A program made the translations under genes and the position numbers. A model generated the notes under the pieces. The model saw nothing but the letters and a program-made list of their open reading frames with translations, was not told the DNA's origin and did no database searches. A stretch of DNA of 64,000 nt from Eledone cirrhosa (taxonomy: Eukaryota), in assembly GCA_964016885.1 (NCBI GenBank), contig OZ024742.1, forward strand, positions 324,508,001 through 324,572,000, read 5' to 3'. Each line of letters starts with the position of its first letter. The stretch's first letter is position 1. This document shows, piece after piece, positions 11,791-57,448 of this stretch.

Positions 11791-12463
11791 GGATATAGGA
11801 AGAGATAGATAAATTGATAGATAGATAGACAGGGATAGAGAAAGAGATAGGTAGAAAGACAACGAGTGAAGGAAAGATGGAAGGATAGAAAGAGAAAACA
11901 TGTAAATCATATATTTCAAATAAATGTGAAAATCTTAGCATAACAGAAATATAAACAAAACAATAAAAAATAAAATAGGAAACGAAAAACTGAAATAAAG
12001 ATTTTAATAAAAAAATTAAATAAAAAAAAAGGACATAAACTTGAAATTAAAGGAAATATTTCTAGAAGGTTTGTTTTTTTAAAAATATTTTTAACCATTA
12101 AATTCTAAAATTTTTCTTACTTTAACTACACCACCAACACCCACCACCACCATCAGCATCAGCACCAGGACCAGCACCACCAATACCATCACCACCATCA
12201 CCACAGTATGACTGACGCTTAAACAATTAAGTTAAAAATGTACATCCACATATGTATACTGAAATATTAGTATGCATATCTTACAAAAGTGAGTTACAAA
12301 CGAAGCGAAATTTAATTTCGTTTCGTTATTTGTTTTTATCGTCTCCGCTGAACCGGTACGTACTCACGCTCTATGCAAATTAGTCTGCCCACTACTAATT
12401 TTCATAGAAAAAGCATATAACGATATGTGCTTTTACGATTCTCTAGAGGGGCGGGAATAGGTA

Positions 12464-12508
12464 AATATTGCTGATGAGATGTAACAACATCGAAACTAGT
12501 CCAATATT
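12464..12508 (+). ncRNA. Type I hammerhead ribozyme, copy 1 of the 463-bp array
   Basis: AATATTG-CTGATGA-GATGT(aaca)ACATC-GAAA-CTAG-TC-CAATATT: 7-bp stem I, 5-bp stem II, palindromic ACTAGT stem III, GUC site at 12499-12501. Confidence 0.93.
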
Positions 12509-12926
12509 CCTGTCTGGCTTTCTGGAGAATAGAGGAAAGGTGTTTCCTCGAAAACCAGTATGACTCTAAAAACCGGTTTGTCTGTGTGTTTACATACAGA
12601 ATAGCTGAACACTCACAGTAAAGTGTCCAGTGAAAAACTCGGTACATCTACATATGTACACGTGTGTGTATTCATATGCATACTAATATTTCAGTATACA
12701 TATGTGGATGTACATTTTTAACTTAATTGTTTAAGCGTCAGTCATACAAAAGTGAGTTACAAACGAAGCGAAATTTAATTTCGTTTCGTTATTTGTTTTT
12801 ATCGTCTCCGCTGAACCGGTACGTACTCACGCTCTATGCAAATTAGTCTGCCCACTACTAATTTTCATAGAAAAAGCATATAACGATATGTGCTTTTACG
12901 ATTCTCTAGAGGGGCGGGAATAGGTA

Positions 12927-12971
12927 AATATTGCTGATGAGATGTAACAACATCGAAACTAGTCCAATATT
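12927..12971 (+). ncRNA. Type I hammerhead ribozyme, copy 2
   Basis: Identical to 12464-12508. Confidence 0.93.
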
Positions 12972-13389
12972 CCTGTCTGGCTTTCTGGAGAATAGAGGAA
13001 AGGTGTTTCCTCGAAAACCAGTATGACTCTAAAAACCGGTTTGTCTGTGTGTTTACATACAGAATAGCTGAACACTCACAGTAAAGTGTCCAGTGAAAAA
13101 CTCGGTACATCTACATATGTACACGTGTGTGTATTCATATGCATACTAATATTTCAGTATACATATGTGGATGTACATTTTTAACTTAATTGTTTAAGCG
13201 TGAGTCATACAAAAGTGAGTTACAAACGAAGCGAAATTTAATTTCGTTTCGTTATTTGTTTTTATCGTCTCCGCTGAACCGGTACGTACTCACGCTCTAT
13301 GCAAATTAGTCTGCCCACTACTAATTTTCATAGAAAAAGCATATAACGATATGTGCTTTTACGATTCTCTAGAGGGGCGGGAATAGGTA

Positions 13390-13434
13390 AATATTGCTGA
13401 TGAGATGTAACAACATCGAAACTAGTCCAATATT
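13390..13434 (+). ncRNA. Type I hammerhead ribozyme, copy 3
   Basis: Identical to 12464-12508. Confidence 0.93.
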
Positions 13435-13852
13435 CCTGTCTGGCTTTCTGGAGAATAGAGGAAAGGTGTTTCCTCGAAAACCAGTATGACTCTAAAAACC
13501 GGTTTGTCTGTGTGTTTACATACAGAATAGCTGAACACTCACAGTAAAGTGTCCAGTGAAAAACTCGGTACATCTACATATGTACACGTGTGTGTATTCA
13601 TATGCATACTAATATTTCAGTATACATATGTGGATGTACATTTTTAACTTAATTGTTTAAGCGTCAGTCATACAAAAGTGAGTTACAAACGAAGCGAAAT
13701 TTAATTTCGTTTCGTTATTTTTTTTTATCGTCTCCGCTGAACCGGTACGTACTCACGCTCTATGCAAATTAGTCTGCCCACTACTAATTTTCATAGAAAA
13801 AGCATATAACGATATGTGCTTTTACGATTCTCTAGAGGGGCGGGAATAGGTA

Positions 13853-13897
13853 AATATTGCTGATGAGATGTAACAACATCGAAACTAGTCCAATATT
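13853..13897 (+). ncRNA. Type I hammerhead ribozyme, copy 4
   Basis: Identical to 12464-12508. Confidence 0.93.
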
Positions 13898-54825: not shown

Positions 54826-54977
54826 TTGTTTACGGTTATATATATATATATATATATATATATATATATATATATATATATATATATATATATATATATA
54901 TATATATAAATAAATATATATATATATATGAAAGACGTAAAATAAGAAAATTATAATAATTAACTTACTTAAGTTTC

Positions 54978-55055
54978 ACTCCAACTAATTAGTTTCTGAA
55001 AGGGGATATACATAGTGTGCAAAACCATGGAGAATTCCTTTCTTCCTCAGGGAGT
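54978..55055 (-). ncRNA. Type I hammerhead, family A (divergent)
   Basis: ACTCC-CTGAGGA-aGAAAGG...CCTTTCa-GAAA-CTAATTAG-TT-GGAGT. Confidence 0.85.
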
Positions 55056-55498
55056 CAATTCTCTGCTAAGATCCCTGGCGATAGGCGGACACAGGGATCT
55101 CAAACAAAAATAATTCAGTGAATGGAAAAGAAGCAAGCACGGACTAAATTTCAAGACACTGAAAATTTCACTAACTTCCCGGTCAGTGGCAAATTCAAAA
55201 TAATCAATCACGTGACATCGAGGTTAATCAGTGAGGAGTGGGGTGTTAAAAAGGCAGTAGCCAAAATATTACTATGAATCATAGCAGTAATTCAGGCAAA
55301 TTTTGCTCAACAAATAATTTGGAGATAATTATAAAGAAGTAGTATATCTACCAACATATTTATACAGAAGTATACTTATGCTTGCAAGATATAGGTTCTG
55401 TCTTAGTAACTTTGAGGTTCAATACAAAAATGTAGAACAATTATATGAAAGACGTAAAATAAGAAAATTATAATAATTAATTTACTTACTTAAGTTTC

Positions 55499-55576
55499 AC
55501 TCCAACTAATTAGTTTCTGAAAGGAGATATACATAGTGTTCAAAACCATGGAGAATTACTTTCTTCATCTGGGAGT
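55499..55576 (-). ncRNA. Family A hammerhead with mutated core (CAGATGA)
   Basis: 521 nt from 54978; U4 to A change, probably inactive. Confidence 0.65.
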
Positions 55577-56276
55577 CAATTCTCTGTTAAGATCCCTGGC
55601 GATAGGCGGACACAGGGATCTCAAACAAAAATAATTCAGTGAATGGAAAAGAAGCAAGCACGGACTAAATTTCAAGACACTGAAAATTTCACTACCATCC
55701 CGGTCAGTGGCAAATTCAAAATAATCAATCACGTGACATCGAGGTTAATCAGTGAGGAGTGGGGTGTTAAAAAGACAGTAGCCAAAATATTACTATGAAT
55801 CATAGCAGTAATTCAGGCAAATTTTTGCTCAACAAATAATTTGGAGATAATTATAAAGAAGTAGTATATCTACCAACATATTTATACAGAAGTATACTTA
55901 TGCTAGCAAGATATAGGTTTTGTCTTAGTAATTTTGAGGTTCGATACAAAACTGTAGAACAATTATACGAAAAATTATATCTTGCTAGCATAAGTATACG
56001 TCTTTCATATAATTGGTCTACATTTTTGTATTGAACCACAAAGTTACTAAGACAAAACCTATATCTTGCTAGCATAAGTATACTTCTGTATAAATATGTT
56101 GGTAGATGTACTAATTCTTTATATATATACATATACACATACACACACACATATATATATATAGTAAAATAACGGAGCAAAGGACTCGCGTATAATCCTG
56201 CAATTAAATGAGCTCAAAGGAAAGAGTTTTCCTGGGCACTTTAAAATACAATATATAGAGGGGAAAAACACAGGAG

Positions 56277-56714
56277 AGTGTGTTTTCCTTTACAGGATTT
56301 CAAACCACCAGCGTGTAGAGAATATAAGCTAAGAGAGGTGTAGGAAAAACATTATAATTAAAAGTATAAATTAAAATGAGAAACCAATCTCATAACTAAG
56401 TCACACATGTACAAACTCACTCGGAGATTGTTTCGCCATTTAGTGGGTTCCAATTCGGCTTAGTGTGTCATCAGCATGTTCTCACTTTAGTAGTGCGGAC
56501 AATATCGGTTTTTGCACATGCTGATGACTAAGCCGAATTGGAACCCACTAAATGGCGAAACAATCTCCGAGTGAGTTTGTACATGTGTGACTTAGTTATG
56601 AGATTGGTTTCTCATTTTAATTTATACTTTTAATTATAATGTTTTTCCTACACCTCTCTTAGCTTATATTCTCTACACGCTGGTGGTTTGAAATCCTGTA
56701 AAGAAAAACACACT
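56277..56714. repeat. ~200-bp inverted repeat with hammerhead-like motifs (56515-56587 on +, 56405-56479 on -)
   Basis: Arms 56277-56479 and 56516-56714; CACATG-CTGATGA-ctaaGCC...GGC-GAAA-CAAtCTC..GAGtTTG-TA-CATGTG. Confidence 0.75.
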
Positions 56715-57374
56715 ACCCCCCCCCTCCCGCTCTCTCTCTCTCTCTCTCTCTCTCTCTCTCTCTCTCTCTCTCTCTATATATATATATATATATATATATA
56801 TATATTCTCCAAAGACATGGCCATAATGTGAAAATCAGGATCTTTACGTTAATTTTAGGCTCTGTAGAAGGAGTATGTGAAAATACCTGAAAATACCTTA
56901 ATCCAATGAAGGAAAATATAGACCAGATCTTAATACACATCAACGTGATTACCACATATCGATACATCCACCTTCCTCTACCGACAATTTACGTTGATTG
57001 GGAAAGGCACCGGCAAGACGACGATGCTTTAGTTTAGACAATATAATTGTATCTATTTGTATAACCTAAGTATACTTAAACACATTCAGTACTGTATGCA
57101 TACACCTACGTCACCTGGTGAATCTCGTCTTTGACTGATTCCGTTTTGTACAATCTCATCAGCTGTTTCCTTTCTCTCTCCCTCTCCCCATTTCTTTTCC
57201 CTTGTTTTCTCTTTGGCCTGGTTATTTCTCTGTTTTAAATACAAATACATATAGATACACTCACTCACATACATATATATGTATGCATATATATATATAT
57301 ATATATATATAAGTATATATATAGAATAAGGAAAAGCGAAGTAGTTTCAGATGTTCAAGTCTTTCAATAATAAT

Positions 57375-57448
57375 GCTGTGATATATATTTCAATGGCGAC
57401 AGTGGCCACACTGTTCTGTGCGCCAGTGTTGCGACATCGTCAGACAGC
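57375..57448 (-). ncRNA. Type I hammerhead with degenerate stem II
   Basis: GCTGT-CTGACGA-...TGGC GCAC..GTGT GCCA...-GAAA-TATATA-TC-ACAGC; insert ~57320-57558 between TA tracts. Confidence 0.68.

Follow-up and report, generated by a model that had tools for sequence, protein, structure and literature searches.

The 64,000-nucleotide stretch of the Eledone cirrhosa genome analyzed here (the window; GenBank assembly GCA_964016885.1, contig OZ024742.1, positions 324,508,001 to 324,572,000) contains a diverse set of non-coding inserts that carry type I hammerhead ribozyme (HHR) motifs and adjoin (TA)n microsatellites. The best explanation, which we hold to be probable, is that Penelope-like elements (PLEs) of the Hydra clade, together with TA-targeted elements that depend on them, account for the system. 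Family B of the small elements shares the insertion signature of the Hydra family: the 3' end is fixed at either of two internal TA motifs, TA flanks the insert, and inverted arms occur. As judged from the sequences, the small HHR elements are most likely copied by Hydra-clade PLEs. The initial annotation of this DNA, made from its letters alone, described a window-wide set of such elements; the set is present in the window, but it represents a genome-wide state and not a local colony.

Hammerhead motifs in the window and in the genome

The strict type I descriptor required CUGANGA, a stem II of at least 3 bp (10.1-11.1 mismatch optional), GAAA, UH, a hairpin or palindromic stem III, and a stem I of at least 4 bp. 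It was compared with 100 dinucleotide shuffles that preserved composition in 500-nt blocks, and a relaxed descriptor, tolerating a single defect, with 60 shuffles. The window has 14 strict matches, against a shuffle mean of 0.03 (maximum 1 in 64 kb), and 19 relaxed matches, against a mean of 0.58 (maximum 2). Strict matches group into four superfamilies. Superfamily A includes the 463-nt array at 12.2-14.2 kb and the 451-nt dimer at 48 kb, which are related (75-78% local identity). Superfamily B includes four inserts at 31-32, 36.9, 45.8, and 55 kb, with a stem II of 47-51 nt and 74-95% identity among them, while superfamilies C and D are located at 50.9 and 43.2 kb, respectively. Relaxed matches bring in families E, G, and N, yielding seven groups of near-intact motifs. 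In family B, 99% of the stem cells are paired and 12 double-sided changes are observed across subfamilies, although among only seven related sequences; this covariation exceeds 500 of 500 shuffles and every slid control. Further compensatory variants of stem II occur among the B matches listed genome-wide.

The presence of hammerhead motifs, as initially proposed, is confirmed, at a level far above dinucleotide shuffles. The proposed number of about 28 motifs can be reached only by including relics with a defective core or a defect in one of stems I and II (27903/27918, 32786, 32982, 39968, 37729/40765, 44904, 54278, 57162, and 57443). The 13 mutually unrelated families were an overstatement, given that the 463- and 451-nt arrays are related and the four long-stem-II inserts form one superfamily. 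The candidates at 27903/27918, 29454, 30423, 32786, 44904, and 57162 are not hammerheads by the descriptors used. No hammerhead family appears among the best 150 of the 355 Rfam matches in the window, which are mostly microsatellite or microRNA artefacts.

The proposed location of inserts next to (TA)n, as well as their inverted 5' arms and tandem units, also hold in the window, where, in every arm and every array, (TA)5+ follows the last HHR on the 3' side at a distance of 10-298 nt. The same enrichment is observed beyond the window. Forty 10-kb regions (400 kb) sampled from contigs C1-C8 contain 54 strict HHRs, spread over 22 regions, compared with 0-1 in shuffles. Among the 42 array-terminal HHRs of the sample, 41 have a measurable distance to TA, and 34 of these 41 have (TA)5+ within 200 nt downstream, compared with 18.5% of random non-repeat positions in the same regions (p ~1e-18). 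Upstream TA is found for 7 of 37 HHRs, that is, at the null level of about 19%. Such polarity is expected if the 3' end of the cDNA joins the TA target.

Genome-wide abundance was estimated in 2,996 Mb (the window sits on a 379-Mb contig) using three exact patterns, each with a control, which for the A type was the reversed pattern. The A-type pattern has 40,743 matches (66 in the control), the patterns with an alternating-palindrome stem III have 152,419 (13,760), and the B pattern has 7,025 (0). The sum is 200,187 matches against 13,826 in controls, an excess of about 186,000, or one per 16 kb. The folding descriptor was passed by 13 of 15 sampled A-type matches and by 28 of 34 alternating-palindrome ones, and these two types of pattern account for 41 of the 54 strict HHRs in the sampled regions. 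Taken together, the pass rates and this coverage point to roughly 2 x 10^5 folding hammerhead motifs in the genome. Extrapolation from the sample gives about 4 x 10^5 (bootstrap 2.1-6.6 x 10^5); it was discarded in favor of the exact counts, because the sample comes from the eight first contigs only and is 1.7-2.8 times richer in pattern matches than these counts predict.

Long arrays were observed elsewhere in the genome (locus L028; contig C1 near 1.24 Mb and at 5.74-5.75 Mb). In these arrays, a 310-nt family forms at least 13 units with 99.9% identity, and an A1 array of more than 30 units closes with an inverted unit.

ORF-less units and Hydra-clade elements

Based on their unit structure, families A, B, D, and G can be assigned to retrozymes of the type lacking long terminal repeats (non-LTR retrozymes), as head-to-tail units of 344-560 nt without an open reading frame (ORF). 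This assignment is restricted to A, B, D, and G and does not extend to C, E, H, and K. Hence, from the initial picture of diverse non-coding, TA-associated HHR retroelements with PLE-type junctions, the general outline is retained, but only part of the inserts are independent retrozymes. The units are 463 and 451 nt long in A, 517-560 nt in B, about 344 nt in D, and 514 nt in G, the unit structure of D and G being based on few loci. Each unit contains one type I HHR, LTR structure is absent, and circular permutation is seen in the units of A1, B, D, and G. GC content is 34-37% and the longest ATG frames encode 28-107 amino acids (aa) in A1, A2, B1, and B3, with 28 aa in B1. In the examined loci, no linked Hydra ORF was found between or upstream of A1, B, D, or G units; three of 60 A1/B loci had Hydra neighbors, which were unrelated. 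Dispersed copies on many chromosomes, which mark these families as recently mobile, are 99-100% identical in B1, 97-100% in A1, and 87-93% in D and G. The strict descriptor is passed by four of six other G copies. The A1 array of the window enters (TA)n with its 3' end and has a CAC repeat at its 5' flank; elsewhere, A1 is present as dispersed copies and long arrays. Circular monomers fold more stably than shuffles (z of -9.0, -8.0, and -5.0 for A1, A2, and B1, respectively).

The insertion signature is best seen in 29 loci of family B. TA is present on at least one side in all of them and on both sides in 25, and 18 contain an inverted arm. The ends concentrate at two positions of the unit, 397 (n=21) and 515 (n=15). 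Both sites show a 4-nt TA microhomology, and both are also where the inverted arms begin. Since 14 of 29 loci have two same-strand HHRs, reverse transcriptase (RT) has crossed the B cleavage site more than once. An error hotspot at the HHR cleavage/ligation site, which would be a mark of a circular template, was not seen in A1 or B.

A separate observation concerns positions 291-292 of the B1 unit (31490-31494, 32012-32016, and near 31193 in the window), located at the base of the inner hairpin of stem II. These adjacent bases vary within 10 of 17 multi-copy insertions, in 13 and 9 of 37 pairs, compared with about 1.5% elsewhere. All six single-step neighbors of TA occur, and AG and GG were never observed. 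CpG decay was rejected as the cause, as other CpGs change at about 1%. Modification or a lesion at this template site could explain the variation, as could mixed templates or a hotspot at the DNA level.

The PLE of the window (37457-40919) consists of an inverted 5' pseudo-LTR (pLTR), an ORF, and 1.07 kb of 3' sequence. This copy is dead: about 126 codons are missing at the start of its ORF, and an additional base near 39325 shifts the frame. Truncation and frameshift mean that this copy is not itself the mobilizer, the role suggested for it initially, although a PLE is the likely source of the enzyme. The best 150 scored matches to its endonuclease in the genome are all 99-100% identical, and intact 773-aa ORFs are found elsewhere. 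All ten fetched long-frame copies retain motifs of the Hydra clade. DKT (changed from DKG) is present in ten of ten full-length copies, and YRDD is also encoded; RWK is found in nine of ten within the scanned interval, the tenth having a longer N-terminus. Both RWK and DKT are missing from the truncated copy in the window. The CxCX5C linker and the CxxC and CxH motifs around conserved E and N residues are present in ten of ten, and their columns are invariant across 46 homologues; CCHH is absent as far as can be read from the sequence. These diagnostic motifs place the PLE in the described Hydra clade, and the C-terminal endonuclease is likewise assigned to GIY-YIG by its motifs. Pfam and PDB sequence searches did not recognize the protein, but a fold search did: the predicted structure (mean predicted local confidence, pLDDT, 85) has telomerase reverse transcriptases (TERTs) as its best PDB matches, suggesting a TERT-like RT.

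The hammerhead initially ascribed to this element retains an intact core and stem II at 40765, but stems I and III are marginal, and the motif at 39968 is a relic. A canonical HHR was not found in the pLTR of this family, including a full-length copy read throughout; sister Hydra families do carry strict HHRs. The family inserts into (TA)n. Its 3' ends fall at two sites (n=12 and n=5) located 113 nt apart, with 3- and 5-nt TA microhomology; the copy in the window ends at the upstream site and is followed by (TA)13. Family copies also show inversions similar to the inverted arms of retrozymes. The 3' untranslated region (3'UTR) has a TA-rich tract (40121-40225 in the window) that is carried by the family, being present in 24 of 24 occurrences in 20 loci and measuring 87-209 nt in the 21 occurrences with both anchors. 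The tract length varies from copy to copy, and other Hydra families have similar tracts. More generally, homology to the Hydra ORF is detected in 13 of 40 sampled regions and comes from many divergent families, several of which combine a microsatellite-bearing 3'UTR with an HHR lying 1.0-1.7 kb past the ORF. A PLE end of another kind was noticed by eye at locus L065 (~730-790), where the 3'UTR is short and a hammerhead of compact form follows the ORF at a distance of about 190 nt, differing from the long-UTR Hydra families.

Families N and P, as read from their sequences, represent 5'-truncated 3' ends of Hydra PLEs. Instead of CUGANGA, N has the fixed core CAGAAGA (A in place of U4). Its stems I-III are able to pair (20134-20186 in the window), and it has at least 34,520 genome matches with at most one mismatch, compared with 0 in the control. 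In two independent loci (87% identity over 1.17 kb), N is located about 1.08 kb behind a Hydra ORF. Two loci show a different Hydra 3'UTR that terminates in family P. Thus, at least two sister Hydra families terminate in a core-variant (N) or an HHR-less (P) 3' end. N may be a naturally occurring variant of the core, or else a ribozyme that is dead but continues to spread. CUGANGA upstream of the P stem II is absent from long copies, and P as half of a hammerhead derived from an intact parent was rejected, the expected parent pattern having 0 genome matches.

Proposed mobilization and its alternatives

A common scheme could connect what is observed, namely the hammerhead motifs and their numbers, the polarity of TA, the signature of the junctions, the motifs of the clade, and the ORF-less units; its steps of nicking, priming, cleavage, circularization, and trans-mobilization by Hydra are those that we infer. 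The Hydra RT-endonuclease would nick (TA)n tracts, and the RNA would anneal to the TA end thus exposed through an internal UA or UAUA motif (3-5 nt). Reverse transcription would begin there, two sites located 50-300 nt 3' of the hammerhead being preferred. As the reverse complement of (TA)n is again (TA)n, the second strand could be primed at the same sites, producing head-to-head inverted arms with TA on both sides. One product would be Hydra 3' ends truncated on their 5' side, which would include N, P, and probably many of the solo HHRs. The other would be the ORF-less retrozymes A, B, D, and G, with units copied for more than one length past their own cleavage site. Such copying would require as a template either a circle, closed by ligation after HHR cleavage, or a multimer left uncut. 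As insertions leave TA flanks and Hydra delivers an internal TA tract, new targets and nesting would result.

Biochemical data on relatives partly agree with this scheme. In the available account of the Poseidon PLE in vitro, both strands are cut and extended, and RT starts from two internal RNA sites (PMC11167929). Self-cleavage, activity of dimers with a palindromic stem III, and circular RNAs are described as established for retrozymes (PMC7229834).

Several points weigh against the proposal that Hydra-clade PLEs copy TA-targeted dependants. In the same account, the Poseidon PLE inserts without a need for HHR cleavage, uses unprocessed RNA, and starts RT without target homology (PMC11167929); as far as described, only one of nine Xenopus retrozyme dimers was cleaved in vitro; and the HHR of the window PLE family is itself non-canonical. 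Six A1 ends coincide at one site, and eight are scattered around it or around a second region. Comparison of A1, A2, and B units with 14 Hydra-containing loci revealed no sequence similarity, and so no shared 3' tail names the partner. TA is missing on one side of four of the 29 B loci and of the window A1 array. Finally, the analyzed loci were drawn from best-match lists and are therefore biased to young, long copies.

One alternative is an uncleaved multimeric read-through template, used by the same enzyme on the same elements, with no circle and with hammerheads as passengers or acting only in RNA fate. HHR mutations are reported to leave Poseidon PLE insertion in vitro unaffected (PMC11167929), the HHR-less P and the core-variant N are among the most abundant inserts, and long tandem arrays are possible sources. 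We find this variant conceivable but doubtful, considering that stems I and II are maintained by compensatory changes across subfamilies, circular monomers are strongly structured, and retrozymes of coral, mussel, and axolotl are stated to yield circular RNAs (PMC7229834). The ORF-less families might instead have another mobilizer: a Naiad PLE, a different PLE clade, or a long interspersed element (LINE) that targets microsatellites. The lack of a tail common to retrozymes and Hydra agrees with such a source, octopus Naiads are likewise described as favoring (TA)n (PMC8557442), and Tx1 and Dong-R4 LINEs as recently active in Octopus vulgaris (PMC13282606). We consider it rather improbable, as cephalopod Naiads are characterized as long-inactivated remnants (PMC8557442), and the two-site ends and head-to-head inversion are PLE traits that match the young Hydra family.

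All HHR inserts being 5'-truncated PLE pLTRs, with no independent retrozymes, is a reading that holds for N and P. At least four of the 54 sampled strict HHRs are located 1.2-2.1 kb behind a Hydra ORF, and HHRs of truncated PLEs are already known (PMC4209133). As a general explanation it is very improbable: A1, B, D, and G units stand head-to-tail with an ORF neither between nor upstream of them, the longest ATG frame of B1 encodes 28 aa, and the reading is refuted for A1 and B in the examined loci (30 each, those of A1 coming from about 11 distinct insertions). The least plausible alternative, with a very small chance, is growth of satellites by DNA-level unequal crossing-over, TA adjacency merely reflecting TA-rich surroundings. 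TA tracts are indeed frequent in the sample (23 per 10 kb), and within one long A1 array private mutations are common to two or three units. But TA is strand-polar (83% downstream compared with the null-level 19% upstream), which refutes this as a full account, and dispersed copies have nucleotide-precise ends. Crossing-over may explain long arrays but not dispersal.

A wider role of Hydra PLEs and retrozymes, as the engine building the TA-microsatellite landscape of the genome, is proposed only tentatively. The TA tract shipped in the Hydra 3'UTR and the TA left at the ends of each insertion would supply new repeats, the ends possibly being lengthened by telomerase-like RT slippage on the UAUA start site, and the deposited tracts would serve as targets of the next round. 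If this is true, no larger population of ribozymes and circular RNAs would be known in any animal, and a common junction signature would tie retrozymes to a named PLE partner.

Features of the window and relation to known systems

Positions of hammerhead elements and Hydra PLE parts in the window
Feature	Position	Strand	Description
Family A1 insertion	12206..14188	+	74-nt inverted 5' arm 12206-12279 and 4.1 head-to-tail 463-nt units
A1 strict type I HHR	12465..12507	+	palindromic stem III
A1 identical HHR copies	12928-12970, 13391-13433, 13854-13896	+	same as 12465..12507
Family A2 dimer, 451-nt unit	47952..48857	+	strict HHRs 48191-48233, 48642-48684
Family B1 insertion, 522-nt unit	30972..32097	+	inverted arm 30972-31437 and 1.3 units
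B1 HHRs	31141-31222 (-), 31463-31544 (+), 31985-32066 (+)		two-part long stem II
Family B2 insertion	45444..45976	+	inverted arm of 136 nt; flanked by TA left and right; strict HHR 45843-45924
Family B3 dimer, 517-nt unit, with inverted arm	54929..56119	-	HHRs 54977-55056 (strict), 55498-55577 (core-mutated)
Family B4 insertion	36825..37452	-	HHR 36891-36974; inside TA tract at left end of PLE
Family C short fold-back insert	50915..51039	.	strict HHR 50919-50969 (-)
Family D	43010..43276	-	~344-nt circularly permuted ORF-less unit; strict HHR 43173-43216
Family E HHR	33537..33583	+	single mismatch in stem I; insert runs up to TA tract 33716
Family G head-to-head insertion	56277..56714	.	514-nt ORF-less unit elsewhere
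G HHRs	56404-56480 (-), 56515-56587 (+)		small indel behind each core
Family H HHR relic	57395..57449	-	stem II base disrupted; 3' end near TA
Family N, truncated Hydra PLE 3' end	20090..20205	+	hammerhead-shaped; other pieces 21085-21230, 60333-60396
Family P fold-back element	30552..30756	+	between TA tracts; end of Hydra 3'UTR; no HHR core
Other P copies	3707-3832, 46019-46207, 46230-46422, 52287-52484, 53425-53615		
Inverted 5' pLTR of Hydra PLE	37457..37912	-	copy of its 3' end; HHR-like core at 37729
Putative Hydra-clade RT and GIY-YIG ORF	37912..39851	+	5'-truncated; starts near residue 127 of 773
Long 3'UTR/pLTR	39852..40919	+	HHR relic at 39968; HHR-like core at 40765, weak stem I

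Two further inserts adjoin TA. Family J (27706-28114), also present in three of the 40 sampled regions, is a 410-nt perfect palindrome with CTGAAGA near its center and without a hammerhead fold. A 72-nt insert without an HHR lies within TA tracts at 9972-10043 and 30789-30860 (96% identity). A near-complete 5S rRNA copy (54707-54825; Rfam, 88 bits) is followed 11 nt further on by (TA)36 and then by the B3 insertion; it may be a retrocopy placed by the machinery of HHR elements. The other neighbors are Helitron remains (4635-5156 and 15039-17835) with pieces of a PIF1 helicase, an ORF with STPR repeats, and 79-nt tandem repeats upstream; a GC-rich broken LINE (23834-26449), presumably Tx1-like, that has endonuclease-like and RT frames (weak RVT_1 match) and adjoins (TCTA)n; and a GC-rich retroelement-like fragment (6450-7326) behind an (ATC)21 tract, with no Pfam match. 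Copies of a short interspersed element (SINE) at 21930-22100, 28345-28561, 41077-41251, 43565-43747, and 59190-59275 are 79-90% identical and have no link to TA; we take this SINE (copies near 21993, 28498, 41100, and 43626) to be octopod. A tRNA-like sequence at 57685-57756 (Rfam, 34 bits) is probably a SINE head.

Retrozymes, PLE hammerheads, the PLE origin of retrozymes, and TA-targeting Hydra elements of octopus are already published. In the open literature searched, we found no report of cephalopod retrozymes, microsatellite-targeted retrozymes, or such abundance, although supplements might list them. The accessible text of the 2026 O. vulgaris repeat annotation (PMC13282606, main text) does not mention hammerhead, ribozyme, retrozyme, or Hydra, and so many octopod "unclassified SINEs" or "MITEs" (miniature inverted-repeat transposable elements) may be HHR elements. 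HHR counts given in the available part of PMC7229834 are 126,247 for axolotl, more than 6,000 for coral, and about 5,000 for mussel. The approximately 2 x 10^5 hammerheads proposed here exceed the largest of these, which is also the largest published count that we found. With differing descriptors, the 200,187 matches of E. cirrhosa occur in about one tenth of the DNA of axolotl, whose genome is given as 28 Gb (bioRxiv 10.64898/2026.07.22.740005). Such a set would also provide a large natural library of hammerhead variants and a candidate mechanism for extreme TA-microsatellite content. Since schistosome HHRs may number tens of thousands in a small genome, no record for density is claimed.

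The closest known relatives of the PLEs are those of the described Hydra clade, including Hydra-1_Obim of Octopus bimaculoides, for which (TA)n preference and an HHR are reported (Craig et al., 2021, PMC8557442). Shared features are the C-terminal GIY-YIG, RWK, DKT, CxCX5C, CxxC, and CxH motifs, insertion into (TA)n, and inverted or tandem pLTRs. Described Hydra elements are mostly shorter than 3 kb, whereas the elements analyzed here are about 3.6 kb, with a 1.2-kb 3'UTR containing a TA tract; they also differ in the non-canonical HHR, the sister families ending in N or P, and very many young copies. Solo HHRs, opposite-strand pairs, and core variants resemble the minimal PLE hammerheads (Cervera and de la Pena, 2014, PMC4209133), but the latter are counted in thousands, and the variant core here is CAGAAGA and not a U3-A8 covariation.

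The ORF-less families resemble metazoan non-LTR retrozymes (Cervera and de la Pena, 2020, PMC7229834; Li, Clavereau and Pollet, 2026, bioRxiv 10.64898/2026.07.22.740005) in their AT-rich head-to-tail units of a few hundred nucleotides with one type I HHR, a palindromic stem III of the dimer type, structured monomers, and coexistence with PLEs. The differences are strict (TA)n targeting, two fixed 3' ends, Hydra-like inverted arms, and many families; the available text of these two sources contains no mention of cephalopods or microsatellite targeting. Circular RNAs are known for retrozymes elsewhere and would be expected for those described here. The two end sites have a parallel in the Poseidon PLE PAc, which, as described, cuts and extends both strands and starts RT at two internal RNA sites that set the tail found in the genome, but does so without target homology (Frangieh et al., 2024, PMC11167929), whereas the ends observed here carry 3-5 nt of TA microhomology. 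In the sources available, similarity to pLTRs and co-occurrence are the grounds on which the enzyme mobilizing animal retrozymes has so far been deduced. In the genome analyzed here, the target, two-site ends, microhomology, and inversions are common to one retrozyme family and to a Hydra family that is young and intact, making the proposed partnership biochemically testable on (TA)n.

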